This document shows positions 8,163 through 44,732 of a DNA stretch of 64,000 nucleotides, piece after piece. Position numbers and translations under genes: made by a program. The stretch covers positions 2,016,001-2,080,000 of the forward strand of contig CAXXNF010000002.1 in NCBI GenBank assembly GCA_963666365.2, written 5' to 3'. Below the pieces are notes generated by a model. It saw nothing but the letters and a program-made list of their open reading frames with translations. It was not told the DNA's origin and searched no databases. Origin of the DNA: Syntrophales bacterium (GTDB lineage: Bacteria; Desulfobacterota; Syntrophia; Syntrophales; UBA2210). Position 1 is the first letter of the stretch. Every line of letters begins with the position of its first letter.

Positions 8163-10169
8163 ATGGATGTGAAAAACGAAACACTGTGCAGTTTATTTCA
8201 CCGGCAGGCGCTTCGCTACGGTGATACATATGTTTTTCTTAAGGCAAAATTCGACGACGAGGGGAAACCCGCTTCCTCATACCACTCTCTCACATGGAAA
8301 GACGTCCGCGATCAGGTGTTGGAGTTTGCCGGCGGACTCTTGTCTTTCGGAGCAAAAAGGGGGGATAGGGTTGCCCTCTTTTCGGAAAGCCGCCCACGAT
8401 GGATCATCGCCGACCAGGCCATACAGGCGGCTGGGTGTATAGGCGTGCCCCTCTATCCCACGCTGACCAGGGAGGAACTGACGTACATGCTCCGCGACAG
8501 CGGCGCCGGCATCATTATCGTCTCAACCGCCGACAAAGCATCCATGGCCCTTGGCGTAAGAACCTCGGAAAAGCTGGATTTAATAATTATTGTCATGGAA
8601 CCCTGGGAAGCGGAAAAACCGGAAGACCTCTATACTTTCTCTGAAGTAAGGGAGATGGGACAATTGGGAATAGTCACCGACGAAGTGGAGCAGCGGATAG
8701 AAGCGGTCAGACCGGAGGATAGCGCCTCCATCATCTATACCTCGGGAACAACCGGGTATCCAAAGGGAGTGGTGCTGACGCAGTCGAACTGGGTGGCCGC
8801 CATGCACCAGGCATCTCATTCCACATTGATTCGCAGGCAGAAAACAAGGGAACTCCATCTCACCTATCTTGTCCATCTTCCGCTCTGTCACGCCTACGGA
8901 CGAACCACGGACTATCATGTGGGGGGGCTTCACCTGGGAGGGATTCTGGTCTTTGCCGAAAGTTACGAAAAACTGGTCAAAAATATCGCCGAGGTCCACC
9001 CCAATGTGATCATCAGCATCCCCAGGTTTTTCGAAAAAACCTATGATATTGTAAAATCGACCCTGGCAAGGCAGCAGCCTTTCACCCGCAGACTTTTCAA
9101 ATGGGCAATGGAGACGGGCACAGATTTTACCAATGCCATGGCCGGAGGCCCGAAGATGTCGCTTTCGACTTCACTCAAGTTCGGGCTGGCTCACCTGCTG
9201 GTGTTCAACAGGATCAGGGAAAACGCGGGATTTGATCGCCTCGTTATCGGCATATCGGGGGGTGGAAGACTTTCCGGCGATGTGTGCAGTTTTATCAGAG
9301 CGCTGGGCATTCAGCTCAATGAAGGATACGGACTTACGGAAACCTGTGCGCTCCTCAATTTCAACGAACCCGAACTTTACGATATTAAAGAAAAGAAGCT
9401 CACTGCATGGGAACACAGGATGATCGATTGGATCGTCGATCTTCTGGTGGCCAGGCAGGCGCAGGGGAATAGTCCCTACGCCAACCCCTTCAGCGCGCTG
9501 AAAATGCTTATTGCCTATTACAGTATCGGCTACCGGCTGAGGGTAAAGCCGGGAACGGTGGGAAGACCGGTTGCTCTTACGGAGGAAATAATCGCCCCCG
9601 ACGGTGAGATCCTGGTCAAGGGACCCCAGGTATTTCAGGGGTACTGGAACCTGCCGAAGGAAACCGAGGCGGCCTTCAACGAAGAAGGCTGGTTCATGAC
9701 AGGCGATATCGGCGCATTCGACTCAGAGGGGTTTCTGACCATAAAGGACAGAAAAAAAGAACTCCTTGTCACCTCCGGAGGAAAAAATATCGCCCCGCAA
9801 CCTATCGAGCACGCTCTTGCAACCCGCCCCTACATCGATCAGGCCGTCTGTACCGGCGATGGCAGAAAATATCTGACGGCGCTTATTGTGCCGGATTTTA
9901 AAAAACTTCGGGCCTATGCAAAATCCAGGAGTCTTAAAGCGGATTCGGAACAGCAGCTTCTTCAAATCGATGAAATTAAAACACTGATCAGAGGCGATGT
10001 GGCCGAGGTGAACCGCCGCCTCCCCCGCTACGAACAGATCAAATACTGCACCATCCTGACAAAGCCCTTCCTCATCGAAACGGGAGAACTGACACCGAGC
10101 ATGAAGATCAAACGCCGGATCATCGAAGAGAAGTACAGGGAAGAAATCGAGGCCATGTACGAAGAGTGA
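8163..10169 (+). CDS. Long-chain-fatty-acid--CoA ligase (FadD15/ACSL-like)
   Basis: YTSGTTGYPKG, GYGLTET, TGDIG, DRKKELLVTSGGKNIAPQ, ELTPSMKIKR. Confidence 0.9.
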   Translation: MDVKNETLCSLFHRQALRYGDTYVFLKAKFDDEGKPASSYHSLTWKDVRDQVLEFAGGLLSFGAKRGDRVALFSESRPRWIIADQAIQAAGCIGVPLYPTLTREELTYMLRDSGAGIIIVSTADKASMALGVRTSEKLDLIIIVMEPWEAEKPEDLYTFSEVREMGQLGIVTDEVEQRIEAVRPEDSASIIYTSGTTGYPKGVVLTQSNWVAAMHQASHSTLIRRQKTRELHLTYLVHLPLCHAYGRTTDYHVGGLHLGGILVFAESYEKLVKNIAEVHPNVIISIPRFFEKTYDIVKSTLARQQPFTRRLFKWAMETGTDFTNAMAGGPKMSLSTSLKFGLAHLLVFNRIRENAGFDRLVIGISGGGRLSGDVCSFIRALGIQLNEGYGLTETCALLNFNEPELYDIKEKKLTAWEHRMIDWIVDLLVARQAQGNSPYANPFSALKMLIAYYSIGYRLRVKPGTVGRPVALTEEIIAPDGEILVKGPQVFQGYWNLPKETEAAFNEEGWFMTGDIGAFDSEGFLTIKDRKKELLVTSGGKNIAPQPIEHALATRPYIDQAVCTGDGRKYLTALIVPDFKKLRAYAKSRSLKADSEQQLLQIDEIKTLIRGDVAEVNRRLPRYEQIKYCTILTKPFLIETGELTPSMKIKRRIIEEKYREEIEAMYEE

Positions 10170-10230
10170 AAAAAGGGTCCAGTATGCGCACAACGCGGTC
10201 GTACGACTGCACATAGCACACAAGAATGAT

Positions 10231-10267
10231 AAAAAAAGGTCCTTTCACTCTCGGAAAGGACCTTTTT
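10231..10267. terminator. Bidirectional terminator between convergent genes
   Basis: AAAAAAAGGTCCTTTC-loop-GAAAGGACCTTTTT. Confidence 0.85.
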
Positions 10268-10285
10268 AATTAACCTGTTTATCGG

Positions 10286-11953
10286 TTACTCCGGATCCTT
10301 GAACACGGCCCCCGTGCTGGCAGAAGTGACCATCTTGGCATAGCGTCCCAGGTATCCCGTTTTGATGAGCGGTTCCTTGGGCGTAAATGCTTTTTTGCGA
10401 CGGGCCAGTTCCTCCGCATCGACCTTCAGATCGATCGTCTTCCCCGGAATGTCGATGGCGATGATATCGCCTTCTTCGATGAGGCCGATGGGTCCGCCTT
10501 CGGCCGCTTCCGGTGATATGTGGCCGATGGCGGCGCCGCGGGTCCCGCCGCTGAATCGCCCGTCAGTCAAAAGGGCCACCGACGTGTCCAGTCCCATGCC
10601 GACAATGGCCGACGTGGGCGACAGCATCTCGCGCATGCCCGGTCCTCCCTTGGGACCCTCGTAGCGGATCACCACCACATCGCCCGGCTTTATCGTTCCT
10701 CCAAGAATCGCCTCAATGGCGTCATCCTCGGAATCGAAGACCCGGGCGCGCCCCTCGTTTTTCATCATGTCGGGCGACACGGCGGACTGCTTCACCACCC
10801 CTCCGTCAGGGGCGAGGTTTCCGCGCAGTATGGCGATTCCCCCTTCCGTTCCGTAGGGATCGTCAGCGGATCTGATGACGGTGCGGTTTTTGACGCGGGC
10901 CTTTTTCAGATTTTCTCCCACCGTTTTCCCCGAGACCGTAAGCGCATCGAGGTTAACGACGCCCTTCGCGCTTATTTCCTTCATTACCGCCTGAATGCCC
11001 CCGGCGCCGTCAAGGTCTTCCAGGTGGTGGGGCCCGGCAGGACTGAGGTAACAGATGTTGGGCGTTTTTCTGCTGATATCGTTGAAAAGGTCGAGATCGA
11101 GGTCGATGCCCGCCTCGTGGGCGACGGCCGGAATATGAAGCACCGTATTGGTGGAACAGCCCAGGGCCATATCGACGGCGATGGCGTTTTTGAAGGCGTC
11201 GAGCGTGGCGATGTCACGCGGCTTGATATCCTTTTTTACGAGATTCATGACGGCCATCCCCGCCTCTTTTGCAAGCCGTCTGCGGGCGGCGGTAACGGCG
11301 GGAATGGTCCCGTTCCCCGGGAGTCCCAGTCCGAGGGCCTCGGTGACGCAGTTCATGGAGTTCGCCGTAAACATGCCGGAACAGGAACCGCACCCCGGAC
11401 AGGCGCAATCCTCCAGTTCGCCAAGCCCCTTCCGGGTCAACGTCCCCGCCTTGACCCTTCCTACGCCCTCGAACACATTGATCAGGTCGACGGGATCACC
11501 GTCATGGACTCCCGCCATCATGGGCCCTCCGCTTATCACCACGGCGGGAATATTGAGACGCAGCGCCGCCATAAGCATGCCCGGCACTATCTTGTCGCAG
11601 TTCGTCACAAGCACAAGACCGTCGAAGGGATGGGCCGTGGCCATGATTTCGATGGAATCGGCGATCAGCTCCCTGCTGGCCAGGGAATATTTCATGCCGG
11701 CGTGGCCCATGGCGATGCCGTCACAGACGCCGATCGTGGGAAATGTCACCGGCGTTCCGCCTGCCATTCTGATTCCCGCCTTCACATCCTCCGTAATAGT
11801 GTTGAGATGTACATGGCCGGGAATAATTTCGTTGGCCGAATTTACTACCCCGATTATCGGCCGGGACAGCTCTTCGTCGGTATAGCCCATGGCCTTGAAG
11901 AGCGATCGGTGCGGCGCTCGCTCAAGACCCTTTTTCATAAGATCACTTCTCAT
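10286..11953 (-). CDS. ilvD: Dihydroxy-acid dehydratase
   Basis: [48 protein letters not shown]; start MRSDL at 11953. Confidence 0.96.
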
Positions 11954-12081
11954 TTCATCGTCCTTTTTTGTGTCGTTGAGGGGTAAAGCGATGAATATGG
12001 TTTCATGGAGAGGGCAACGGAACCACTGCAGGGAATACTCGGTCTTTCCACCCTCTCCACACTCGGATCTGGCAATGCCGC

Positions 12082-13140
12082 TTACTTCTTGCCCCGCCGC
12101 TCCGGACGAAGCTCTCGTAGGACGGTTCCGGCCTGCCACATCTCCATAGTGCGCATCGCGCTCAGCTCTTCCTCAAGCCGTTCGCGGTAATCGGGGGCGC
12201 TGTTTACCCGCAGGACAATTTCCGTCTCTTTTCCCGATTTCACACTTTCATAGAGTTCATCGAATACCGGATCAACGGCCTCGCGGAACCGGCTTTTCCA
12301 GTCGAGGGCGCCGCGCTGCGCCGTGGTGGAACAGTTTGCGTACATCCAGTCCATACCGTTTTCTCCCACAAGACGGATCAGGCTCTGGGTCAATTCTTCC
12401 ACCGTCTCATTGAAAGCCTCGCTGGGGCTGTGGCCGTGTTTCCTGAGACAGTTATACTGGGCTTCCATTACGCCGGCCAGGCATCCCATAAGGACGCCGC
12501 GCTCGCCGGTCAGGTCGCTGAACACTTCGTTCTCGAAGGTGGTGGGGAAAAGGTATCCCGAACCGACGGCAATGCCGATCGCCTTCGTCCTGTCCATGGC
12601 ACGGCCGGTGGCATCCTGAAACACGGCGATGCTGGAGTTGATGCCGCTTCCATCAAGGAAATTTCTTCGAACCGTCAAACCCGATCCCTTGGGCGCCACC
12701 ATGATGACATCGATGTCGGCGGGAGGGACAATCCCCGTCTGTTCCTTGTAGACAATAGAAAACCCGTGTGAAAAATAGAGGGCCTTCCCTGCGGTCATTA
12801 AATCCTTGATTTTCGGCCATACCGCCGCCTGGCCCGCATCGGAAAGCAGCAGCATGACAATGGTGCCTCGCTTCGCCGCCTCTTCCAGGGAGAAGAGACT
12901 CTCGCCGGGCACAAACCCGTCATTGATCGCCTTGTTCCAGTAGAACTCTTCGCTCTCCCGCTGTCCCACAATGACCTTGAATCCGTTGTCCTGCATGTTG
13001 AGCGCCTGTCCCGGTCCCTGCACACCGTAGCCGAGCACGGCAATGACCTCGTCTTTCAGCACTTCACGAGCCATTTCCAGAGTAAATTCGTCCGCCGTGA
13101 TCACCTCTTCGACCACATCTCCGATTTTTATTTCCGCCAT
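12082..13140 (-). CDS. ilvC: Ketol-acid reductoisomerase (Ilv5/Bacteroidota-like type)
   Basis: [50 protein letters not shown]. Confidence 0.95.
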
Positions 13141-13169
13141 CTTTCATCTCCTCACTTTTTATTATTTAT

Positions 13170-13643
13170 TTATAATACAACCATTCCCGATCTGCTCATG
13201 TCCTCAATGCCAAGTGTCTCGAAATATGCCAGGGCCCGATCGATATCCTTCTTGACCCCCGTCAACTCGAACAGAAAACAATCAGGACCCTCCGCCACGA
13301 CCCTGCTCCCGAATTCTTCAATGGCTTTGATGACCTCTCCCCGGTTGTCCCGTGTGACGCTCACACGAATCAGCACCATCTCCCGCTGTATCGACGATCT
13401 CGCCTTTACGTGGGTCACCTCGATGACATCCACCAGTTTCTGCATCTGTTTTTCTATCTTCACGACGGTGTTCGCGTCGCCCTTTGTCACCATGGTAATC
13501 TTGGTCACCTCGGGATTCATGGTCACGTTGGCGCTTATATTTTCTATATTGAATCCCCGGCCGCTCAGAAGTCCTGAAATCCGGGCAAGCACGTCGGGTT
13601 TGTTATTCACCAGAAGTGAAATCGTATGATCCTTTACTTCCAT
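13170..13643 (-). CDS. ilvN: Acetohydroxyacid synthase regulatory subunit (copy 1, Gly-to-Asp in the ACT Val site)
   Basis: ACT domain LVNNKPDVLARISGLLSGRGFNIE, KLVDVIEV, RSG. Confidence 0.92.
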   Translation of the reverse strand: MEVKDHTISLLVNNKPDVLARISGLLSGRGFNIENISANVTMNPEVTKITMVTKGDANTVVKIEKQMQKLVDVIEVTHVKARSSIQREMVLIRVSVTRDNRGEVIKAIEEFGSRVVAEGPDCFLFELTGVKKDIDRALAYFETLGIEDMSRSGMVVL

Positions 13644-13758
13644 AGGTTTGCAATCCTTTCATCAATCAGAAAATCACAGGGCCCGATAGAGACAGGCCGA
13701 CCTTCCGGTACAGGTTCTGCAAGCGACGGACATCGCATACTATCCGCACGCGGGCTTT

Positions 13759-15465
13759 CTAAAGCCCTGTATCCCGCACCAGTTTCATTTCCGTCAAGGC
13801 CGCCCCGGGACCTACCATGGGATAGACGCCCTCCTCGGCTTCGACTATAAATTCCATTACCACCGGTCCCGGCGTCTCCAGACCCTTTCGAAGCGTCGCT
13901 TCCACTTCATCCGGTTGTGTCGCCCTCAAGCCCACGATGCCGTATGCCTCGGCGACCTTCACAAAATCGGGCCTCTGACTGCTGCCGATATCAGTGTGGG
14001 AATAGCGTTTTTCATAAAAAAGTTCCTGCCACTGGCGCACCATTCCCAGATATCCGTTGTTCAGGATCACGATCTTGACGGGAAGGTTATAATTTGCCGC
14101 TGTGGCGAGTTCCTGAATGTTCATCTGAATGCTTCCGTCGCCGGCGATGTCCACCACCAATTTATCGGGAAAGGCCACCTGAGCGCCAATCGCCGCCGGA
14201 AAGCCATAGCCCATGGTCCCCAATCCTCCAGAGGTAAGAAAGGTATTTGGCTCATTGAACCGAAAGAACTGCGCCGTCCACATCTGGTTCTGTCCCACCT
14301 CGGTGGCGATAATGGCGTTCCCCTTTGTGAGTTCGTAGAGCGTTTCGATGACCTTCTGCGGTTTGATGGTAGTGCTCTTACAGTAGCTCATAGGACCCTC
14401 GAGCCGCCAGCGCTCGATTTGTGCGAGCCACTCCTTTCGTCCTTCCCGAAGCGCGGAAAGACCGTTCTTATCCAGTATGGTGTTCAGTTGCACAAGGGCC
14501 GACTTGCAGTCGCTTACGATGGGCACATGGACGAGCACATTTTTATTAATCGATGCGGCATCAATATCGATCTGCACGATGGTCGCATTCGACGCGAAGG
14601 AAGAGAGCCTCCCGGTGACGCGGTCGGAAAATCGCACGCCCAGGGTGAGCAGCAGATCGCAATTGCTTATGGCCATATTCGCATAGTAGGTGCCGTGCAT
14701 CCCAAGCATCCCAAGCCAGAGGGGATCGGTGCCGGGAAACGATCCCAGGCCCATAAGTGTTGAAGCGACAGGCATGTTGAGCTTTCGCACAAACTCGGCA
14801 AGCTCAGCACTCGACCGGCTGTGAATGATACCGCCCCCTACCAGCACCACCGGCTTTTTCGCCCCCTTGATCAATTCAAGTGTTTCTTTGAGCTGTTTCG
14901 GATCGGGAAGATAGACCGGTTCCGCCATAGTCGATCGGGAAAGCCCTCCTTCGCGATATTCGGCCTTCGCCTGAATGACATCCTTGGGAAGATCGACGAG
15001 GACCGGCCCGGGACGGCCGGAGCGGGCAATGTAAAAAGCCTCCCTTATGGTTTTTGCCAGCTCGTCCACGCGTCGCACCAGCATATTATGCTTGGTGCAG
15101 GGCCGAGTGATGCCGGTGATATCGGCCTCCTGAAAGGCATCGGTCCCGATAAAAGGAGTCGGCACCTGTCCCGTCAGAATAACCATGGGGATAGAGTCCA
15201 TATAGGCCGTAGCAATGCCGGTTACCGTATTTGTGGCGCCGGGACCTGAAGTTACGAGACAGACGCCTACCTTTCCCGACGATCTGGCATACCCGTCGGC
15301 GGCATGAGCGGCCCCCTGCTCATGGCGCACCAGTATATGGTGTATTGAGGACCTGTACAGTTCGTCGTATATATCGAGAACCGAACCACCGGGATAGCCG
15401 AAAATCGTGTCGACACCCTCTTCAAGCAATGACCGGATTAATATTTGTGCACCTGTGAATTCCAC
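13759..15465 (-). CDS. ilvB: Acetohydroxyacid synthase catalytic subunit (copy 1)
   Basis: FGYPGG, RHEQGA, SGPGATN, GDGSIQMN, LGMVRQWQ; GTG start with AGGAGG SD. Confidence 0.95.
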   Translation of the reverse strand: MEFTGAQILIRSLLEEGVDTIFGYPGGSVLDIYDELYRSSIHHILVRHEQGAAHAADGYARSSGKVGVCLVTSGPGATNTVTGIATAYMDSIPMVILTGQVPTPFIGTDAFQEADITGITRPCTKHNMLVRRVDELAKTIREAFYIARSGRPGPVLVDLPKDVIQAKAEYREGGLSRSTMAEPVYLPDPKQLKETLELIKGAKKPVVLVGGGIIHSRSSAELAEFVRKLNMPVASTLMGLGSFPGTDPLWLGMLGMHGTYYANMAISNCDLLLTLGVRFSDRVTGRLSSFASNATIVQIDIDAASINKNVLVHVPIVSDCKSALVQLNTILDKNGLSALREGRKEWLAQIERWRLEGPMSYCKSTTIKPQKVIETLYELTKGNAIIATEVGQNQMWTAQFFRFNEPNTFLTSGGLGTMGYGFPAAIGAQVAFPDKLVVDIAGDGSIQMNIQELATAANYNLPVKIVILNNGYLGMVRQWQELFYEKRYSHTDIGSSQRPDFVKVAEAYGIVGLRATQPDEVEATLRKGLETPGPVVMEFIVEAEEGVYPMVGPGAALTEMKLVRDTGL

Positions 15466-15484
15466 ACAACACCTCCTCATTATT

Positions 15485-15520
15485 AAAAAAAAACCGCTAC
15501 CGGGGAGCCGGTAACGGTTC
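15485..15520 (-). terminator. Attenuator terminator upstream of ilvB copy 1
   Basis: mRNA GAACCGUUACCGG-CUCC-CCGGUAGCGG-U9. Confidence 0.85.
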
Positions 15521-15543
15521 TTAGTTCTCCTATGGTAAAAAGA

Positions 15544-15624
15544 TCAGACCATTAGCCAGCCCCTCGTATGGGAGGAGATAATTATAATTACGCCGCTAAT
15601 TATAAAATTTCTCTCAGTAGTCAT
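15544..15624 (-). CDS. Ile-rich attenuation leader peptide MTTERNFIISGVIIIISSHTRGWLMV
   Basis: 26-aa uORF with 6 Ile and 2 Val codons just before a terminator; its 3' part GGGGCUGGCUAAUGGU can pair with the terminator 5' arm (antiterminator). Confidence 0.8.
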   Translation of the reverse strand: MTTERNFIISGVIIIISSHTRGWLMV

Positions 15625-15718
15625 GCCGACAAATCTGATCTTTCCGATTCGTATTGAAATAACTGCGCTTAGCTATCAGAAATGTCGTGTACTGTCAAGC
15701 GATTTTATCGGCTCCTTT

Positions 15719-16201
15719 TTATTTATTTTCCAGCGCAATGGCGCCTGTCCGGCAGATATCCTTTACGCCCAGCGGTTTCAAATAATTGAGCACCGTTTCC
15801 ACTTCTCCCTTGTACCCCACCGCCTGGATTATCAGATAGTCGTCCTTCATCGACACAATTGAACACCCGAACAGGGAAATCGCCTGCGTGATTTCGGCCC
15901 GATGGGCCTTGTCGAAGGGAAGGCCTATAAGCATCATCTCCCGTTTGACCGAGTGCGTATCTTCCAGTTCCGTCACCTCGATCACGTCAACCAGTCGATT
16001 CAGGGCCTTTCTGACCTTCTCCATGAACTGCGAATCTCCCTTGCTCACCGAGGTAATGCGCGACACTTTCGGTGAAATGGTTTCGGCCACACAGAGACTC
16101 TCAATGTTGTAACCAAGACGGCCGAACACACCGGAGACCCGCGCCAGAACGCCCGGTCTGTTGTTGACCAGCATTGATATCACATGTTCTCTAATTTCCA
16201 T
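15719..16201 (-). CDS. ilvN: Acetohydroxyacid synthase regulatory subunit (copy 2, canonical PGVL)
   Basis: LVNNRPGVLARVSGVFGRLGYNIESL, RLVDVIEV, RTG. Confidence 0.92.
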   Translation of the reverse strand: MEIREHVISMLVNNRPGVLARVSGVFGRLGYNIESLCVAETISPKVSRITSVSKGDSQFMEKVRKALNRLVDVIEVTELEDTHSVKREMMLIGLPFDKAHRAEITQAISLFGCSIVSMKDDYLIIQAVGYKGEVETVLNYLKPLGVKDICRTGAIALENK

Positions 16202-16250
16202 TGTTCCTTTCCACTCCTCTCAATTCTGAATCGCCTGTATACCATCTTAC

Positions 16251-17927
16251 TTAATCGGAACGCCCGTAAATCATCTGCACATTCGATCTTCCCGGGGGTA
16301 TGATCGGATAGACATAGTTGTCCGGGTCCACGAGCACCTCCAGCAGGAAGGGTCCGTCGGTACTGCACATCTCGTCTATGCCCGCTCCGGCATTGGCGAC
16401 ATCGACTTTCTCCGATGCAATGCCGAACCCCTTGGCAATTGCCGCTATATCAACCTTTCCACCAAGCTGGCTGTCACGAAAGCGCGAATTATAGAAAAGA
16501 TCCTGAATCTGGCGTATCATTCCCAGGTTGCCGTTGTTGAAGACCACGATCTTTACAGGCAGATTATAGCAGCTGATCGTTGCCAGCTCCTGAATGTTCA
16601 TAAAAAATCCGCCGTCACCGGTAAAGACGACTACGCCCCGGTCGGGAGCGCCGACCTTGGCACCCATGGCCGCGGGCACGCTGAATCCCATGGTGCCCAT
16701 CCCGCCGCTGGTGATCAGTCCCCTCTGAATGCCGACTTTCCATGAACGCACCGTCCAGATCTGATTCAGACCCACATCGGCGACGGCAATCGTTTCTTCC
16801 GGCATTGCGCTCTGCACCTGTTCGATGAAATCGCCTGCAGGACCACATCCACCAGCGCCGCCGTTCTGCTGCAGTTTGGTCCGCTCATTCTGTATCCTCG
16901 ACAGCCATTCGGCCCTGTCCTTTTCATCAATCAGTGTAATCATTTCTTCCAGCGCCAGCTTCAAATCACAGACTACGGACATATCCGTTTTGATGTTCTT
17001 CCCGATCGAAGTCGGATCGACGTCGATCTGGGCAATCTTTGCCAAAGGAGCGAATTCTTCGATAACGGAGGTGCTGCGATCACTGAAGCGCGCACCAATG
17101 GCAAGAATGAAATCTGATTGATGCACCATGCGGTTTGCCAGATCGTTGCCGTGCGTGCCGATAAATCCGAGATTGTAGCCGTTCGTCGTCGCCACCGACC
17201 CGATACCCATCATTGTGGTGACGAAGGGGAGCTTCCCTTTCATAATCACATCGGCCATCTCCGTAAAGGCGGATGCCAGCTTGACTCCACCGCCGATAAT
17301 AAGCACGGGCTTTTCCGCCTCGTTCAGGTACCGGGTGATCTGCTGCAACTGACGTTTGTCCGGACCGGTCAGGGGGGTGTGATCCGTGCTTGGCAGTTCT
17401 ATATCGCGCTGTTCCTTCTCTTGGGTCCGCGCGGCCATAATATCCCTGGGCATGTCGATAAGCACCGGACCGGGACGGCCTGTCGTCGCAATATGCAGGG
17501 CTTCCCGTACCGTGGCGGCGATGTCATTGACATTATGCAGCAGAAAACTGTGCTTCGTAATCGGCATGGTAATACCGATTATATCCGTTTCCTGAAAGGC
17601 ATCGCTTCCCAGAAGATTGGTGGTGACCTGCCCCGTAAGGGCGATCATGGGTGTGGAATCCATGTAGGCGGTGGCGATTCCCGTCACCAGATTGGTGGCG
17701 CCCGGCCCCGATGTGGCCATGCACACGCCTACCTTGCCGGTGGCTCGGGCATACCCGTCAGCGGCATGCGCCGCTGCCTGTTCGTGCCGCACAAGCAAAT
17801 GTTCTATGCAGCTTTCGTTCAGACAGTCATGAACGGGCAGAGTGTTCGCTCCGGGGTATCCGAAGATATGCTGGACCCCTGCTTCTTTTAATGTTTGCAG
17901 CAGTATTTCTGCTCCTGAACGTTCCAT
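16251..17927 (-). CDS. ilvB: Acetohydroxyacid synthase catalytic subunit (copy 2)
   Basis: FGYPGA, RHEQAA, SGPGATN, GDGGFFMN, LGMIRQIQ; SD GAGGGAG. Confidence 0.93.
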   Translation of the reverse strand: MERSGAEILLQTLKEAGVQHIFGYPGANTLPVHDCLNESCIEHLLVRHEQAAAHAADGYARATGKVGVCMATSGPGATNLVTGIATAYMDSTPMIALTGQVTTNLLGSDAFQETDIIGITMPITKHSFLLHNVNDIAATVREALHIATTGRPGPVLIDMPRDIMAARTQEKEQRDIELPSTDHTPLTGPDKRQLQQITRYLNEAEKPVLIIGGGVKLASAFTEMADVIMKGKLPFVTTMMGIGSVATTNGYNLGFIGTHGNDLANRMVHQSDFILAIGARFSDRSTSVIEEFAPLAKIAQIDVDPTSIGKNIKTDMSVVCDLKLALEEMITLIDEKDRAEWLSRIQNERTKLQQNGGAGGCGPAGDFIEQVQSAMPEETIAVADVGLNQIWTVRSWKVGIQRGLITSGGMGTMGFSVPAAMGAKVGAPDRGVVVFTGDGGFFMNIQELATISCYNLPVKIVVFNNGNLGMIRQIQDLFYNSRFRDSQLGGKVDIAAIAKGFGIASEKVDVANAGAGIDEMCSTDGPFLLEVLVDPDNYVYPIIPPGRSNVQMIYGRSD

Positions 17928-17956
17928 CGTCGTCTCCCTCAAAGTTCTCGTAAATT

Positions 17957-17990
17957 AAAAAAGCCGCTTTCTTCTGCAAAGCGGCTTTTT
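17957..17990 (-). terminator. Second (downstream) terminator of a tandem attenuator
   Basis: mRNA AAAAAGCCGCUUU-GCAGAAG-AAAGCGGC-U6. Confidence 0.8.
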
Positions 17991-17996
17991 CGAAAT

Positions 17997-18030
17997 AAAA
18001 AAGCCGCAGGCTTTACGGGGCCTGCGGCTC
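17997..18030 (-). terminator. First attenuator terminator upstream of ilvB copy 2
   Basis: mRNA GAGCCGCAGGC-CCCGUAAA-GCCUGCGGC-U6. Confidence 0.85.
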
Positions 18031-18046
18031 GTTTTCGTGATTTATG

Positions 18047-18130
18047 TCAGCGCGATCGAGCAGCAGTCCCCGTAAGTACTACTACGAGTACATATACGCT
18101 GCTAAGTACGACCCCAAACCGACCTGTCAT
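18047..18130 (-). CDS. Val/Leu-rich attenuation leader peptide MTGRFGVVLSSVYVLVVVLTGTAARSR
   Basis: 27-aa uORF with SD GAGGAG, 7 Val and 3 Leu codons; CUUACGGGGACUGCUGCUCG is complementary to the terminator 5' arm and loop. Confidence 0.85.
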   Translation of the reverse strand: MTGRFGVVLSSVYVLVVVLTGTAARSR

Positions 18131-18159
18131 TTAACACTCCTCATTATAGCTAAAGTGTG

Positions 18160-18187
18160 ACTATACGCGAAAAATATCTCTTGTCAA
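18160..18187 (-). promoter_or_regulatory. sigma70 promoter of the ilv leader
   Basis: TTGACA-16 nt-TATAGT on the minus strand. Confidence 0.65.
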
Positions 18188-18230
18188 GCATTTTTTTACT
18201 TTATTTTATTCCACACCTGCTGAACCAGTT

Positions 18231-18611
18231 TTACGTGCGTACAAGAAGATAACTGCCTCCGTCATCTCTGCGGATCTCCCAACGAGTAGACTCCATTGCC
18301 TGCTCTGCAGCGGTAACGCTGTAATCAATCCGCCATTTGTTATCACACCATACTCTGATCCTGGTAGGATGGTAATGCCAGTCGAAGACAACATTAACAC
18401 TGCCGCCTGGATCAATTGACGCTTCATCTGTATCCGTGCCATACCCGGGAGCATCAAAGTCGCTATCAATCATCACATAGGCATGCTGGTCTAACGTGTT
18501 CTTAACACTGATATTTTTATACGCCCCGCCCGCCATGAGTGGTGCCGCCGCAAATAACACAAACAGGGGGCACAATAGAAATACCGCAGTAATCTTTATC
18601 GATCTTTGCAT
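18231..18611 (-). CDS. Hypothetical secreted protein
   Basis: Signal-peptide-like N-terminus, SD GGGAGGGG, beta-rich mature part; no family recognised. Confidence 0.6.
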   Translation of the reverse strand: MQRSIKITAVFLLCPLFVLFAAAPLMAGGAYKNISVKNTLDQHAYVMIDSDFDAPGYGTDTDEASIDPGGSVNVVFDWHYHPTRIRVWCDNKWRIDYSVTAAEQAMESTRWEIRRDDGGSYLLVRT

Positions 18612-18642
18612 TTTCCCCTCCCTAATTTGTCATTTAAAATAA

Positions 18643-21081
18643 TCATCGCGACAACTCCTCCTTATCACTCTTCATAAAACTGTCGAGGTCGATTTTTTGC
18701 GAATCCGATTTTGGCGCATCACGCAGGGTCATCATATCGGTGTGAGACGGTTCGGTCCCTTCGAGAAAACACTCGAATACGCTCTCTTCCGCTCCCGGCT
18801 TTGCAAGCGTTCCCGTTTCAGGATCGATACGGGCGAATACAATCCCGTCGGGCGGCGCAAAGGATTCCACCGGTTTTGACTCAAGCGCCTTTTCCATAAA
18901 ATAGAGAAAGATGGGGCTTGCGGCACGGGAACCCGTTTCATGCCTCCCCAGGGGTCTGAGATCGTCGTATCCCACCCATACTCCCGTGACCAGTGACGGA
19001 GTAAAACCGATAAACCACGCATCGAAAAGATCGTTCGTCGTGCCCGTCTTTCCCGCCACGGGTCTTTTCAGGGCCTTCACCCGCCAGCCGGTACCGCGCT
19101 GGACCACCTCCTGAAGAAGATGACAGGTGATATAGGCAATTCTCGGATCTACCACCTGTTCAATATTGGGCTTTGTCTCCTCCAGCGCCGTCCCGTTTCT
19201 CTCAACAATTCTTTTTATGGAGAAGGGCTCGGCTCTTTTCCCGTTGTTGGCAAAAGTACTATAGGCCTTTACCATTTCGAGCAGCGTAACGCCGGAACTC
19301 CCCAGCGCCATGGAGAGATCCCGCGCAAGGGGAGAGGAAATGCCCAGGTTCCGGGCGTAGTCGGCGGCATAATCGATCCCGATATCCTTAAGCACCTTAA
19401 TCGTGACAAGATTGCGCGACTTGATAAGGGCGGTGCGCAGTGGTGTGGGACCGTAAAACTTTTCCTCGTAGTTGTGCGGCTTCCAGGAACTGTCTTTCAG
19501 CGTATCCCGAAAAATTATCGGGGTGTCCATCACTATGGATGCCGGGGTCATGCCTTTATCAAAGGCAGCGGCATAGATGAACGGCTTGAATGCGGAGCCG
19601 GGCTGGCGTCTTGCCTGTGTCGCCCGATTGAACTCACTTTTTCCATAACTTCTTCCACCCACCATTGCCTTTATTTCACCGGTTTTCGCATCCAGACAGA
19701 CAAGGGCGCCCTGGACTTCAGGCTCCTGCTCCAAGGCAAGCATAAACAGGGAATTCCCCTCCTCCTCGACAGTATCGACAATCAACGCCTCCACCACATC
19801 CCCGACCCTCACTACGTCTGCGGGGTCCTGTACCGGATCGGCCTTGTAGGCGACATCAGGATCGGGTTTTCGGGCCCAGGCCATGTCTTTCAGTACCATG
19901 GTCCCTCGATGGGCGCCCACCCTCAGGGACACAATCTTTTTCTCGCTGTTTACATCGACCACAAGGGCCTTGACGATTTCACCTTTTTCATATGCCCTGC
20001 CGCCTCCTTGTTCCATCGTAGACGTCTCCAGATAGCCGTCAAAGCGATCCAGGGGGATATGTTCCAAAGGCCCTCGATATCCCTGCCGTTTGTCCAGTTC
20101 ACGAAGTCCCCGCACGACCGCGCGGCGCGCCGCTCTCTGCATGGCCGCGTTCAGCGTCGTATACACTTCAAGCCCTTCTTTGTAGAGCACATCGCTGCTA
20201 TAGGTGGTCTGGATATAACGGCGCACATTTTCGGTAAAATAGGGGGCGATTTTTTCTTTCTCTTCATCTCTGAGCACCACAAGGGGGGCATCAATGGCGT
20301 CCTTTCGCTCTTTTTCCGTAATATACCCGTCTTCCGCCATTCTCCTGAGCACATAGATCTGCCGGTTTCGCGCCAGATCGAAATGATACAGGGGGCTGTA
20401 CCTGCTGGGCGCCTTCGGAAGTCCTGCCAGAAGCGCCGCCTCCGTGAGCGTCAATTCCTTCGCCTGTTTTCCGAAATACCGTTGCGAGGCCGATTCGACA
20501 CCATAGGCGCCGTGGCCCAGGTAAATCTGGTTCAAATAGAGGTTCAATATCTCGTACTTACTTAAATATCGCTCAATCTTACTGGAAAGCATCGCTTCCT
20601 TGAGTTTCCGAATATAACTCTTTTCCGGCGTCAGGAAGAGCGATTTGGCAACCTGCTGCGTAATGGTGCTTCCACCCTGCACAATGGCGCCGGCCTTGAG
20701 GTTCTTTAAAAAGGCCCGCACAATGCTTTGCAGGTCAATGCCGCTGTGCTGGAAAAAACGGGCGTCTTCGGCGGCCACAAAGGCCTGTATGACGAAACGG
20801 GGCAGATCCTCGATCCGGATAAGCTTACGGTCTTCGAGATAGAACTGGTCGATCAACTCGCTGTCGTCGTCATAGACGCGGGTGATGATGCTGGGCCGGT
20901 AATCCTTCAGTGCCGCAATGCTGGGAAGATCGTTGTTGAGAGAGTAAAGTGTCCATGCTCCGAAGGCAGCGACGATGACAGCGGCAAGAAAAAGGCCGAT
21001 CAGAAGTTTTATGATTAGAGATGCTGCCGACCTTTTCTTTTTACCGGCATCGTCTCCCTCCAATTTATTCCTTTTCTTCAT
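18643..21081 (-). CDS. mrcA: Penicillin-binding protein 1A
   Basis: EDARFFQH, GGSTITQQ, RKLKE transglycosylase motifs; SAFK, SRN, KTGT transpeptidase motifs. Confidence 0.95.
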   Translation of the reverse strand: MKKRNKLEGDDAGKKKRSAASLIIKLLIGLFLAAVIVAAFGAWTLYSLNNDLPSIAALKDYRPSIITRVYDDDSELIDQFYLEDRKLIRIEDLPRFVIQAFVAAEDARFFQHSGIDLQSIVRAFLKNLKAGAIVQGGSTITQQVAKSLFLTPEKSYIRKLKEAMLSSKIERYLSKYEILNLYLNQIYLGHGAYGVESASQRYFGKQAKELTLTEAALLAGLPKAPSRYSPLYHFDLARNRQIYVLRRMAEDGYITEKERKDAIDAPLVVLRDEEKEKIAPYFTENVRRYIQTTYSSDVLYKEGLEVYTTLNAAMQRAARRAVVRGLRELDKRQGYRGPLEHIPLDRFDGYLETSTMEQGGGRAYEKGEIVKALVVDVNSEKKIVSLRVGAHRGTMVLKDMAWARKPDPDVAYKADPVQDPADVVRVGDVVEALIVDTVEEEGNSLFMLALEQEPEVQGALVCLDAKTGEIKAMVGGRSYGKSEFNRATQARRQPGSAFKPFIYAAAFDKGMTPASIVMDTPIIFRDTLKDSSWKPHNYEEKFYGPTPLRTALIKSRNLVTIKVLKDIGIDYAADYARNLGISSPLARDLSMALGSSGVTLLEMVKAYSTFANNGKRAEPFSIKRIVERNGTALEETKPNIEQVVDPRIAYITCHLLQEVVQRGTGWRVKALKRPVAGKTGTTNDLFDAWFIGFTPSLVTGVWVGYDDLRPLGRHETGSRAASPIFLYFMEKALESKPVESFAPPDGIVFARIDPETGTLAKPGAEESVFECFLEGTEPSHTDMMTLRDAPKSDSQKIDLDSFMKSDKEELSR

Positions 21082-21847
21082 GCTCCTCGCCGGACCCCTC
21101 TTTATTGAGTGCCCCCCCTTTCTTCTCTCCCATCCTGACGACCCACACGCTGATTTCGTAAAGAATGATCAGCGGCACCGCCATCATGCATTGCGTCACT
21201 ACATCGGGAGGGGTCAAAAGCGCAGCGGTTATGAAGGTGAGAAGAATAGCATATTTTCTCTTCTTGATCAACGTCGTGGAATCCACCAGACCAATGCGGG
21301 CGATAAAAAACATAAAGATAGGAAGTTCAAAGATGACCCCGAAGGCAAGCAGAAGCTTCATCGAAAAGGCAAGATACTCCTTCATGGAAAGCATCGGTTT
21401 TATCAGATCGGTTCCGAAGGCCACAAAAAATTTAAACCCCAGAGGAAAGACCAGAAAGTACGCAAAACAGGCGCCGCCGACAAAAAACAGGGTGGAAAAT
21501 GCCACAAAGGGCACAACATATTTTTTTTCCGACTGATAGAGGCCGGGAGATACAAATTGCCATATCTGATACAGGACGAAGGGGCTTACCAGAAATATGC
21601 CAGCAAAAAACGAGATCTTGAGGTAGGTAAAAAAGGCCTCGGGAAGACTTGTAAAGATCATGGCGCTCCCCTCAGGCATTATGTCGGCAAGGGGAAGCAG
21701 AAGGAGTGAAAAGAGCCGCTCCTTGAAAAAATAGCATGCCACGAAACCGATCCCGATTGCCGCCAGACTTTTCATCAGCCGGCTGCGCAGCTCATCCAGG
21801 TGGGAGGTAAAGGGCATTTTTTCTTCGTCAATAGCAGTATTTTCCAT
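21065..21847 (-). CDS. tatC: Twin-arginine translocase subunit TatC
   Basis: HLDELRSRL, QIWQFVSPGLY..EK, FELP, LTPPD. Confidence 0.95.
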   Translation of the reverse strand: MENTAIDEEKMPFTSHLDELRSRLMKSLAAIGIGFVACYFFKERLFSLLLLPLADIMPEGSAMIFTSLPEAFFTYLKISFFAGIFLVSPFVLYQIWQFVSPGLYQSEKKYVVPFVAFSTLFFVGGACFAYFLVFPLGFKFFVAFGTDLIKPMLSMKEYLAFSMKLLLAFGVIFELPIFMFFIARIGLVDSTTLIKKRKYAILLTFITAALLTPPDVVTQCMMAVPLIILYEISVWVVRMGEKKGGALNKEGSGEEHEEKE

Positions 21848-21898
21848 GGGCGGATGCTTTTATCAGGCTAATCTGTGAATTTGCAGGAAATGAACCAC

Positions 21899-22159
21899 TC
21901 ATTGCTCCTTCTTTTCGGCACTTTTTGTATCACCCTTTTCCTTATCGCCTGTGCCGTACAGAAGGGAGTCCTTGATTTCGCTTGCATCATCTTTAAATTT
22001 ATCGACATTGATCGATTCTTTCACATCATCGGTGGCCCGCCGGAACTCGGCCAACCCCTTTCCCAGAGATTTTGCCAGGTCGGGCAGTTTTTTAGGACCG
22101 ATGATGATCAGGGCAACTATTAAAATTACAATTAGTTCAGGCATTCCGATGCCAAACAT
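21899..22159 (-). CDS. tatA: Twin-arginine translocase TatA/TatB family subunit
   Basis: [40 protein letters not shown]. Confidence 0.85.
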
Positions 22160-39798: not shown

Positions 39799-39912
39799 TC
39801 ACACATCTTTTATGGAAACAGGTTGACTTCGTTCACCAATTTTTCGGCATGCCCTTTTCAGTACTTATAATGCCGGGAAGCATCCCGGCACACATTAAAA
39901 GGAGGTATGTGT

Positions 39913-41256
39913 ATGAATTTTTTCGTAAAAAGATGTGCAATTCTTACCTGTATCTGTGCCCTGGCCCTCTGTTTTCTGGGGACCAGCGCAACGGCCATGC
40001 CGGCCTTCGACATTTACAAAATGTCCGATATGACCGGCTTTGACCCCAATACGTACAAAAACCCCGAAGGTGATGATGTCGTCAAGATAGGCCTGCTTCA
40101 GATTTTTTCGGGTCCCGCCGCGGGAAACGGTGAAATTTTCTGGGCCACCTGCACCTGGAACGCCTACGACATCAACAAGCGGGGCGGTCTTATGGTAGAC
40201 GGGAAGAAGAAAAAGGTCGTTATTCTCAAAGGCGACACCCAGGGAAAACCGACCACCACGAAAAAAGAGGCGGAAAAGCTCTGCCTCGAAGAGAAGGTGG
40301 ATGTCCTCTGGGGGACCTCGGGCAGCCACAACTGCCTCGTCATTCAGAATGTGGCAAAAAAATACAAGACCATTTTCGTCAACACCCTCGGCCTTGCAGA
40401 TACGCTTATGGACGGCAAGAATTTCAATCGCTACACCTTTAAAACTATTCAGTCAACTCAGATGCATGGTGCGGCACTTGCCTACTTCTATTCAAAACGG
40501 CCCGAAAAGAAATTCTACATTCTCAATCAGGACTATGTGTACGGTCATGATATGGCTGCAGGATTTAAACGGGGACTCAAACTGTATAAGCCGGACGCTG
40601 TTATTGTCGGCGAGACCTACCATCCCCTTTTCATGAAGGATATCGCCCCCTACGTCACCAAGATCACGGCCTCCGGCGCTGAGGTGGTCTTCAGTTCTGA
40701 CTGGCTGCCCGACGGCGGCAATCTGCTCAAGACCATGCGCGAACTGGGCGTAAACCTGCCTATCGCCAATATTTACGTCGATGAACCGAACGCACTCACG
40801 GCGGTCGGTATCGAAGGGACGAAGGGTCTGGTCAACCAGAAGGACTTTCTCATCGGCTTTGATACGCCGGAGAGTACCAAGTGGCTTACCGACTGGAATA
40901 ACTGCTGGAAAACATGGTCGAAACCCTATGACAGCCAGCTCTATAAGTGGAATTCGGGAACCCTCGGCCAGGTCATCGAAGACACCTATTGGCTTTTCGA
41001 CGTGATGGAACGCGCGGGCAGCACCGACCCCGAAAAAATCATCGCCACCTGGGAAGGCGATGAATACAAGGCCATCTCTAGGGTGCGTAAAATGCGCGCC
41101 TGTGACCACCATGCGGTAAACGACACCTTCGTCACCGAATACGTATTCCCCAATCCCTTCTTTGACGGCATGGCCGCCGGAAAAGACATCATACGGATCC
41201 CGGCTGAGTATTGCACCCATCCCATACCGGAAGATCTGGACCGATGCAAGAAATAG
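39913..41256 (+). CDS. ABC transporter substrate-binding protein (Liv/HAAT family)
   Basis: Signal peptide, KIG....SG, IN.RGG, QDYVYGHD, MRACDH; SD GGAGG. Confidence 0.88.
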   Translation: MNFFVKRCAILTCICALALCFLGTSATAMPAFDIYKMSDMTGFDPNTYKNPEGDDVVKIGLLQIFSGPAAGNGEIFWATCTWNAYDINKRGGLMVDGKKKKVVILKGDTQGKPTTTKKEAEKLCLEEKVDVLWGTSGSHNCLVIQNVAKKYKTIFVNTLGLADTLMDGKNFNRYTFKTIQSTQMHGAALAYFYSKRPEKKFYILNQDYVYGHDMAAGFKRGLKLYKPDAVIVGETYHPLFMKDIAPYVTKITASGAEVVFSSDWLPDGGNLLKTMRELGVNLPIANIYVDEPNALTAVGIEGTKGLVNQKDFLIGFDTPESTKWLTDWNNCWKTWSKPYDSQLYKWNSGTLGQVIEDTYWLFDVMERAGSTDPEKIIATWEGDEYKAISRVRKMRACDHHAVNDTFVTEYVFPNPFFDGMAAGKDIIRIPAEYCTHPIPEDLDRCKK

Positions 41257-41283
41257 ACCGGTAACGGAGCGGCAATTCACCCC

Positions 41284-41321
41284 GTGGGGATTTCCCTTCT
41301 CCTTAGAAGGGGAATCCCCAC
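41284..41321 (+). terminator. Stable hairpin after the binding-protein gene
   Basis: GTGGGGATTTCCCTTCT-loop-AGAAGGGGAATCCCCAC. Confidence 0.6.
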
Positions 41322-41548
41322 ATGAAAAATTGATGCCTTCATAGCGCGAGAGGGGTGTTTTTTTGCAATGGCCTGTGTTGGAAAAAACGCAAACGTCTCA
41401 AACCTTTTCCATCCTACAGAATATTGAAAATTCATTAACCCATTGCCGGCACAATTATTCCTTTTATGTTTCATATATACATATAGTTACGCTCATAATA
41501 CTGACCCAGGGTCATATTTTTTTTATTTCAGGTATTTTAATTTTTTAC

Positions 41549-41577
41549 TTGACAAGCATCGTCTCTTTGGCTAGGTT
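41549..41577 (+). promoter_or_regulatory. sigma70 promoter with AT-rich upstream element
   Basis: TTGACA-17 nt-TAGGTT preceded by a T-rich tract. Confidence 0.55.
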
Positions 41578-42121
41578 CACCCGGTACCGTAACGCTGAAC
41601 GATCGACCTGTCGGCTCAGGAATGCAGGAGCAAGATCGGCGGTACAGTGAAAGATGTGGGGATGCAACGCAATTCGATCTTTCTCGCTATCAGAAAGTGC
41701 TTCGAAGAGTGAACCGCGGGTATGCAAGGGACCAGAGGATTTTTTGTACCCTTAATCCGATCGAAGACCGAATACATCGAAAGATGGACGTCCCTCTGCT
41801 CGGGATGCGGGTGCAGTGTTTCCCGGCTTCGACTGAACGGCCGGGAAGAGGCATCCTGTGAGCGGTGCAGGGTGGCGCCGCATCATTTCGGACAGAAGAT
41901 GGGCAATGCAGCTCTCTTGGCGGTCTGAATGTGCAACTCGACAAGCGCTCTCCCTTTCTTTCGTACGATTTCCGCGTTAATAGAAGAACGTAGCATTATG
42001 AAATTAGTCATTGCATGACGATACACATGGAAACAATAGCATTTGCCACCTGGACTACAGTGGAAAATGTTATGTTGCGTTTATGATTTTACACAATTAA
42101 CAAGAAAAGGAGATTTAGCGT

Positions 42122-43000: not shown

Positions 43001-43002
43001 CA

Positions 43003-43971: not shown

Positions 43972-43983
43972 GGAGGATATCAG

Positions 43984-44730: not shown

Positions 44731-44732
44731 GA

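Follow-up and report, generated by a model that had tools for sequence, protein, structure and literature searches.

Within a 64,000-nt stretch of a Syntrophales bacterium genome (contig CAXXNF010000002.1, positions 2,016,001 to 2,080,000; hereafter the window), we analyzed a gene cluster comprising two pairs of acetohydroxyacid synthase (AHAS) large and small subunits together with ilvC and ilvD, all encoded on the minus strand (Table 1). We refer to the upstream, lower-scoring pair as type A and to the downstream pair as type B. Each is preceded by a putative leader-peptide attenuator of its own, and the locus probably consists of two tandem AHAS operons with overlapping roles. A preliminary description of this DNA had noted the motifs MIRQIQ and NRPGVL upstream and MVRQWQ and NKPDVL downstream, all of which are present in the minus-strand translations, and had placed the downstream pair in an ilvBN-ilvC-ilvD unit, a gene order that profile searches confirmed. 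It had also described an upstream leader with Val/Leu codons and a downstream leader with Ile codons; the codon counts (7 Val, 3 Leu, and 0 Ile versus 6 Ile) bear this out, and the upstream leader is Val-rich.

Table 1 Features of the tandem AHAS locus, in the order of transcription (positions are those of the window).
Feature	Position	Strand	Details	Basis
Sigma-70-like promoter, Val-leader unit	18160..18187	-	TTGACA-16 nt-TATAGT	11/12 consensus matches; top site of 9-kb scan
Leader peptide 1	18047..18130	-	MTGRFGVVLSSVYVLVVVLTGTAARSR; 27 codons, 7 Val/3 Leu/0 Ile	ORF reading
Attenuator RNA, leader 1	17953..18072	-	Antiterminator and terminators 1 and 2 (predicted)	Folds, RNAalifold
Terminator 1, leader 1	18030..18001	-	With U-run	Terminator scan, fold
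Terminator 2, leader 1	about 17990..17957	-	With U-run	Terminator scan, fold
Type A (divergent) AHAS large subunit	17942 (TTG) or 17927 (ATG)..16251	-	MIRQIQ; 558-563 aa	TIGR00118
Type A small (regulatory) subunit	16201..15719	-	160 aa; NRPGVL	TIGR00119
Perfect -35 hexamer	15693..15698	-	TTGACA; possible separate promoter of the Ile-leader unit	Sequence reading
Leader peptide 2	15544..15624	-	MTTERNFIISGVIIIISSHTRGWLMV; 26 codons, 6 Ile/2 Val/1 Leu	ORF reading
Attenuator RNA, leader 2	15481..15575	-	1:2 hairpin, antiterminator, and terminator (predicted)	Folds, alignment fold
Terminator, leader 2	15522..15489	-	With U-run	Terminator scan, fold
Type B (canonical) AHAS large subunit	15480 (ATG) or 15465 (GTG)..13759	-	MVRQWQ; the GTG is preceded by GAGGAGG	TIGR00118
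Type B small subunit	13643..13170	-	157 aa; NKPDVL	TIGR00119, structure alignment
ilvC (ketol-acid reductoisomerase)	13140..12082	-	Sole copy in the genome	Profile and genome search
ilvD (dihydroxy-acid dehydratase)	about 11953..10286	-	Likely start at Met63 of the listed ORF	
Intrinsic terminator, operon end	10267..10233	-		Terminator scan

Both large subunits pass as biosynthetic AHAS against TIGR00118 (cut-off 538.35 bits; type A 645.6, type B 822.3), and each is encoded beside an ACT-domain regulatory subunit, both in the window and in all relatives for which the small-subunit region was fetched. A genome search found no further AHAS pair beyond these two. In HMMER alignments, the second Ile of the type A motif MIRQIQ falls on the middle Gln of LVHQQQ in Escherichia coli AHAS I (6lpi, also the top Protein Data Bank match of the type A large subunit, at 427 bits) and on the Trp, W574, of MVMQWE in the solved structure of Arabidopsis AHAS. 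This Trp is the key residue for 2-ketobutyrate (PMC5727371). To place the window in context, we surveyed 41 genomes from the family and order to which it belongs, its own genome among them; AHAS was found in 34 of them and 44 loci were analyzed. AHAS scores among these relatives form two classes, at ~600–660 and ~790–835 bits. The Trp is present in all 32 type B large subunits and in none of the 25 type A ones, which carry Ile (19), Met (3), or Val, Tyr, or Leu (one each). Non-Trp AHAS-like proteins are common in general (53 of the 145 length-filtered representatives aligned, from 150 matches listed). A catabolic acetolactate synthase was rejected as an identity for type A, which reaches 298.8 bits on the AlsS model (cut-off 510 bits) and has both a regulatory subunit and a Val leader. 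As side observations on the type B genes, the large subunit of a same-genus relative (L007, genome G001) is broken into overlapping ORFs of 471 and 121 aa by a frameshift that may be either real or an assembly error, and in the window the 115-nt gap between the large- and small-subunit genes (13644–13758, minus strand) holds a short GC-rich hairpin at 13698..13680 with a weak U tail.

Both small subunits also exceed the cut-offs of TIGR00119 (56.9 bits; type A 156.9, type B 139.7) and NF008864 (119 bits; 167.6 and 149.2), with profile matches spanning residues 4–159 and 4–156, respectively, i.e., the length of a two-domain, IlvH-type subunit. Asp17 of type B, in NKPDVL, corresponds in the alignment to the NESGAL Gly of E. 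coli IlvH (2f1f), which we take to be G14, and Gly occupies this position in all five small subunits among the alignments listed, both Arabidopsis repeats counted. The E. coli residue equivalences proposed in the preliminary description hold by alignment, with Ile at the Trp position in type A and Asp at the IlvH Gly in type B. This conserved Gly of the first ACT loop is absent from the type B small subunit not only in the window but across its relatives (Asp in 29 of 29), and it is present in all 24 type A small subunits, which also have the usual residues at the other compared ACT-domain positions (N14, N32, A39, and E40). At position 39 of type B, equivalent to IlvH A36, we found Asn in 26 subunits, including the window copy, and Asp in three, compared to 63 Ala, 10 Gly, and 2 Asn in the outgroup (n = 75); Thr59 is invariant in the 29 type B subunits, where the outgroup mostly has Ile or Val. 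Outside the order, all 75 small-subunit genes from 68 genomes carried the Gly, in an unbiased phylum sample of 71 genomes whose sole Asp besides that of the window’s genome came from one other in-order genome. When homologues of the type B small subunit were collected through a word index, Asp appeared in 118 of 119 clusters, but this was dropped as a frequency measure in favor of the unbiased sample, as such an index selects candidates on shared 5-residue words, the Asp motif among them.

The two pairs have diverged in opposite ways. Outgroup large subunits are nearer type B than type A (60.1% versus 39.2% identity; 29 of 29), and outgroup small subunits are slightly nearer type A (40.3% versus 37.6% identity to type B; 67 of 75). 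By these comparisons, type A combines a diverged catalytic with a conservative regulatory subunit, and type B a conservative catalytic with a remodelled regulatory one. Altering the conserved Gly of the AHAS III small subunit (IlvH) yields a Val-insensitive enzyme (PMC5727371), and IlvN variants containing G20D are feedback-resistant (PMC8406616). These precedents, in which Gly-to-Asp at this position confers insensitivity, weigh against an alternative that we regard as unlikely, namely that the type B subunit is not simply feedback-dead but answers to another effector such as Ile or Leu, or rests in a self-liganded, constitutively activating state. What speaks for it is the constancy of the site: position 17 (Asp), position 39 (Asn or Asp), and Thr59 all differ from the outgroup, and because the Asp never drifts, as a merely inactivated site would be expected to, the effector site may have a new role rather than be dead. 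In addition, at 37.6% identity to the outgroup, the type B small subunit is more diverged than its 60%-identical catalytic partner predicts. Retention of the Asp for structural reasons is, however, equally possible. Duplicated small-subunit-like genes were also encountered elsewhere in the phylum: in another family, two such genes lie about 150–370 nt apart (L129 in G094 and L130 in G052), one of them very divergent (CENKPGVTANV), and G056 has two identical small-subunit copies 2.2 kb apart.

Upstream of each AHAS large-subunit gene, the two features expected of a leader-peptide attenuator are present, i.e., a directly adjacent short ORF rich in regulatory codons and an intrinsic terminator between this ORF and the gene. 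At least one terminator-like hairpin was detected in every upstream region among the relatives (25 for type A, 31 for type B). Mutually exclusive antiterminators are predicted for both leaders from constrained folds, a consensus fold, and pair counts, all of which draw on sequence only, and when a ribosome is placed on the Val or Ile run in constrained folding of the nascent transcript, the antiterminator is obtained in both leaders. In leader 1, this antiterminator pairs GGGGACUGCUGCUCG with CGAGCCGCAGGCCCC. The RNAalifold consensus of 22 Val leaders comprises the antiterminator (GGGGACYGCYGCUCG with CGAGCCGCGGGCCCC) and terminator 2, and the antiterminator shows compensatory changes (pair 58-91 is CG in 14, UA in 6, and UG in 2). 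Of the 25 type A leaders, 21 contain two or more terminator-like hairpins, mostly ~40 nt apart, and of the 31 type B leaders, 22 contain exactly one terminator. The two terminators of the Val leader are themselves complementary in part, the 3′ arm of the first, GCGGCUUUUUU, matching the 5′ arm of the second, AAAAAGCCGC. This complementarity points to a possible relay, with the antiterminator releasing the 3′ arm of terminator 1 so that it would block terminator 2 and both terminators would be disabled; the two arms are invariant across the 22 sequences, such that these columns carry no covariation evidence for or against it.

The attenuator of leader 2 includes a 1:2 hairpin (CCUCC/GGGG) and a predicted antiterminator in which GGGGCUGG-C-UAAUGGU pairs with ACCGUUACCGGCUCC. 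In an alignment fold of 22 Ile leaders, both the 1:2 hairpin and the terminator were recovered, and compensatory changes were seen (pair 107-125 is GC in 12 and AU in 9). For the antiterminator, 93.4% of the alignment cells can pair, versus 17–65% in slid controls, both partners have changed in four pairs, and none of 500 shuffles matches its covariation score, although the tested structure was derived from the window’s own row, which is somewhat in its favor. No Rfam family was found for either leader in a scan of positions 9000–22000 with E values up to 1, which returned just sub-threshold Thr_leader matches on the ilvD terminator and an unrelated sRNA. In 19 outgroup genomes from the phylum, no Ile/Val/Leu-rich leader with a terminator was found within 400 nt upstream of ilvB; in some of these genomes ilvB follows ilvD, and the operon start may sit further upstream.

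The pattern recurs in every relative examined and is not due to chance. Both AHAS types were found in 22 genomes from 13 genera and 7 families, in tandem in 11 and at separate loci in the rest, and close homologues bear the source names of Syntrophales or Deltaproteobacteria metagenome-assembled genomes. At separate loci, type A is a stand-alone bicistronic unit, followed by ileS-lspA in G017 (L053) and by a transposase gene in G014 (L055). Upstream of each of the 25 type A genes is a Val-rich leader with the C-terminus ..VVV(L)TGTAAR, comprising 6–10 Val, 0–7 Leu, and 0–2 Ile codons, except for five Ile in G037. Across the two-enzyme genomes, Val exceeds Ile in 21 of 22 type A leaders (a tie in G037), and all 23 type B leaders are Ile-dominated, with 6–11 Ile and more Ile than Val. 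The difference in amino-acid specificity between the two leaders that the preliminary description had claimed is thus kept throughout the 22 two-isozyme genomes, with covariation in both antiterminators, and the Trp/non-Trp and Asp/Gly states segregate perfectly with isozyme type. Of the nine genomes with type B only, three have Ile-type leaders, two of these from a genus that otherwise has both enzymes, and six have mixed or Val-type leaders, four of which carry the ..GTAAR tail typical of type A leaders. These mixed or Val-type leaders fit a specialization of the leader when the second enzyme is present. Type A alone was found in three genomes, i.e., G003 (75% complete), G015, which has a partial type B at a contig end, and G031 (98% complete).

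Amino-acid-specific leaders extend to the supply of 2-ketobutyrate. No ilvA was found in the genome with TIGR01127 at E values up to 1e-30 (TIGR01124 was not searched), and a citramalate synthase gene, cimA, scores 728.7 bits on TIGR00977 and adjoins a leuA-like gene; 2-ketobutyrate thus probably comes from citramalate. Outside the window, the region upstream of cimA (C1:69948-70150, minus strand; L051) contains a promoter, an Ile-rich leader, MMRILITIIIISGIIREACRRPT, and a terminator, and the same kinds of elements stand before the leuA-like gene located downstream of cimA, namely a promoter, a leader of 38 codons, 11 of them for Leu, and a terminator (C1:68030-68330, minus strand; L051/L052). 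The cimA and type B leaders share a stretch of 19 of 21 nt and similar terminators, which may reflect a common origin or only the Ile codons. Since both are preceded by Ile leaders, Ile attenuators would control the entry of 2-ketobutyrate as well as the Trp-bearing AHAS, which is the strongest support for the idea put forward in the preliminary description. A genome-wide leader scan was otherwise mostly noise, with convincing hits only at cimA, leuA, and the two ilvB leaders; a Leu-run match at C2:1075723 was discarded as it lies on the wrong strand of a signal-peptide gene. The genome also encodes a second ilvD paralogue elsewhere, 49% identical to the first.

An alternative that does not invoke product branches is that the main difference between the two isozymes lies in the physiological condition under which each is used, e.g., low pyruvate, with the leader difference being secondary and the distinguishing residues having no effect on products. 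E. coli AHAS I is most useful when pyruvate is scarce (PMC5727371), type A sits on a long branch with many changes besides the Trp position, and the frequency of non-Trp AHAS-like proteins given above is compatible with such a view. Unless the isozymes were tied to the supply of Val and Ile, however, it would be difficult to account for the retention of amino-acid-specific leaders in 13 genera, and type A keeps a full canonical regulatory subunit; both points make this alternative very unlikely.

Taken together, we favor, with a probability of about 0.65, the reading that these are two tandem biosynthetic AHAS operons with their own leader-peptide attenuators and with overlapping Val-side and Ile-side roles. 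When Val-tRNA, and to a lesser extent Leu-tRNA, is scarce, the ribosome would stall in leader 1, the antiterminator would form, and transcription would continue past both tandem terminators into the type A genes; a shortage of Ile-tRNA would likewise stall the ribosome in leader 2 and open the type B operon, including AHAS, ilvC, and ilvD. Type A is an order-restricted, strongly diverged AHAS without the 2-ketobutyrate-selecting Trp and with a conventional Gly-type regulatory subunit, and would serve as an added, acetolactate-biased, and probably Val-inhibited booster for the Val/Leu branch. Type B would be the ancestral Trp-bearing AHAS, paired with a regulatory subunit whose effector site has been remodelled (Asp for Gly14, Asn/Asp for Ala36), and would act as the general enzyme, with a bias toward acetohydroxybutyrate and probably without Val inhibition. 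The Ile leader of cimA and the Leu-rich leader of leuA would complete an amino-acid-specific attenuation regulon. The split is one of regulation and bias and is not exclusive. Its regulatory part is well supported by sequence conservation and covariation, the catalytic and allosteric part (substrate preference and Val sensitivity) can reasonably be drawn from analogy, and we infer the response of the leaders to amino-acid starvation from their codons and folds.

Several observations weigh against the two-operon reading. Substrate preference and Val inhibition are extrapolated from mutated enzymes of E. coli and Corynebacterium, at ~40% identity. The two units are not transcriptionally independent: the -35 hexamer upstream of leader 2 is followed by a poor -10 (TAGCTA), at a site that the promoter scan did not call, and the terminator scan found none between the type A small-subunit gene and leader 2, such that upstream transcription could read through into the Ile-leader unit. 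No internal promoter for ilvC and ilvD was seen behind the Ile attenuator, and Val starvation alone would not obviously raise the expression of these two genes, which are required for all three amino acids, Val and Leu included, yet gated by Ile. The Asp is an order-wide trait of type B that is not tied to the two-isozyme arrangement, and since it also occurs in the nine genomes that yielded no AHAS besides type B, it may differ in meaning from G14D in IlvH, or feedback may simply be absent in these genomes. Finally, in G031 (L041, L059), type A with its Val leader is directly followed by ilvC-ilvD and no other AHAS was found, from which type A can probably supply acetohydroxybutyrate as well and serve all three amino acids.

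In a stricter version, type A would make acetolactate only, for Val and Leu, and type B acetohydroxybutyrate only, for Ile, as parts of a matched and co-evolved triad of leader, catalytic, and regulatory traits. The perfect segregation of leader type, Trp/non-Trp, and Asp/Gly in the 22 two-isozyme genomes and the placement of cimA under the same Ile control favor this version, as do two evolutionary patterns: in the phylum samples, neither the Asp nor type A occurs outside this order, and the two may have arisen together, and some type-B-only lineages are nested among two-isozyme lineages, suggesting secondary loss. Against it, nine genomes yielded no AHAS other than type B, and ilvC-ilvD belong to the type B operon both here and in the four relatives for which the downstream region was examined (three two-enzyme, one type-B-only); type B must therefore supply acetolactate too and cannot be an Ile-only enzyme. 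Moreover, at the substrate levels of the cell, the Trp-bearing AHAS II and III provide the two products in the proportion required (PMC5727371), so the Trp does not make an enzyme Ile-only. Together with the 98%-complete type-A-only genome and a sole ilvC within the type B operon, this renders the strict version unlikely, and the exclusive assignment of one enzyme to each product in the preliminary description is not supported. Of the three matched levels that it proposed, the leader and Trp splits are retained, and the claim is weakened at the regulatory-subunit level by the order-wide Asp.

Relative to systems described in E. coli and Actinobacteria, the favored two-operon arrangement is conserved and coherent, and what is new in it is a variant of known regulatory logic rather than a new logic: it closely parallels E. 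coli AHAS I versus AHAS II, and the Syntrophales pair works like these two enzymes but falls in neither group. Type A resembles AHAS I and its ivbL leader in lacking the Trp, in having a Gly-bearing ACT subunit, in its bicistronic organization, and in its Val/Leu-type leader; Val and Leu both mediate attenuation of E. coli ilvBN (PMC8406616), and AHAS I, which has Gln at the Trp position, shows no 2-ketobutyrate preference (PMC5727371) and is Val-sensitive. Type A differs from AHAS I in having Ile, Met, Val, Leu, or Tyr at this position, in its tandem terminators, and in its phylogeny, as it forms a clade of its own that shows no particular affinity to AHAS I. The type A small subunit, a full-length IlvH-type protein of 160 aa, scores 38 bits on the single-ACT model NF006036 (cut-off 128), E. 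coli IlvN being ~96 aa long. With no Gln, this NF006036 score, and a placement support of 0.49, type A is not identified as an orthologue of E. coli AHAS I (IlvB/IlvN).

Type B, in turn, is similar to E. coli AHAS II (ilvGM) in its Trp (Trp464 in AHAS II) and in being part of an attenuated operon with ilvD downstream. AHAS II prefers 2-ketobutyrate and is Val-resistant (PMC8406616 for the latter), properties that for type B we only infer. Unlike AHAS II, type B has an IlvH-type small subunit with a point-like Gly-to-Asp change and not an IlvM, and its scores of 675.6 bits on NF006524 (cut-off 738) and 36.6 bits on NF008362 (cut-off 68) do not identify it as an AHAS II orthologue, even though the Trp is present. 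Its leader is almost purely of the Ile type, unlike ilvGMEDA, which is attenuated via all three amino acids (PMC8406616), and its operon includes ilvC and ilvD without ilvE or ilvA, 2-ketobutyrate being provided via citramalate synthase. The Asp itself is the same substitution at the same position as in E. coli IlvH G14D and in Corynebacterium glutamicum IlvN G20D/I21D/I22F. Those feedback-resistant mutants are, however, laboratory or selected alleles, whereas type B has the Asp naturally and without exception throughout a whole order, along with additional conserved substitutions at positions 39, 40, and 59. The leaders also resemble those upstream of ilvBNC in Corynebacterium and other Actinobacteria, where a short Ile/Val/Leu-rich ORF and alternative hairpins precede ilvB (PMC10272879, PMC11857589), although a single AHAS has one mixed leader there, compared to two enzymes with separate single-amino-acid leaders here. 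The preliminary description was not aware of this arrangement in Desulfobacterota: a literature search, whose scope was papers outside subscription-only access, likewise found no description of it in Syntrophales or Desulfobacterota, and a term search of PMC4833913 returned nothing on delta-proteobacterial ilv leaders.

If correct, the two-operon reading would represent an independent solution to the problem addressed by E. coli AHAS I and II, i.e., how a single enzyme step can serve two pathways whose demands differ, and this in strictly anaerobic syntrophs with single-amino-acid attenuators that are cleaner than those of E. coli. It would add a set of leader-peptide attenuators (Val, Ile twice, and Leu), of which the two ilvB leaders match no Rfam family in the scanned region, and would provide natural candidates for Val-insensitive AHAS regulatory subunits and acetolactate-biased catalytic subunits, of practical interest for valine, isobutanol, and isoleucine production.

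Regarding the origin of type A, clustering at 50% identity yielded one full-length cluster and one fragment, with next relatives ≤43% identical. The type A clade is supported at 1.0 and sits on a branch 0.61 substitutions per site long, and the support for its position relative to other AHAS is 0.49. In a phylum sample of 401 genomes, type A was found in this genome and two others, all from the same order, and in none of the 387 outside it. A recent duplication of type B was rejected as its source: types A and B are 44% identical, type B and the outgroup ~60%, and the type A branch is long. The type A and type B trees (FastTree topologies from a 453-column trimmed alignment with partial outgroup large subunits) are broadly congruent, and because some type-B-only genomes are nested among two-enzyme lineages, this suggests an early acquisition of type A and later losses. 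A broader scenario, which we consider doubtful, would connect these events: the order may have fixed Gly-to-Asp and Ala36-to-Asn/Asp as its wild type, with the type B subunit re-tuned to a new effector or to a self-liganded, always-activating state, while Val feedback and attenuation passed to a newly acquired, acetolactate-biased AHAS, perhaps inserted between the original leader and its enzyme, and the Ile attenuator was perhaps copied from the cimA leader. Elsewhere in the window, ~22 kb from the ilv locus, five genes on the plus strand (39907–45446) encode a Liv-type branched-chain amino acid ABC transporter, comprising a periplasmic binding protein, two permeases, and two ATPases.

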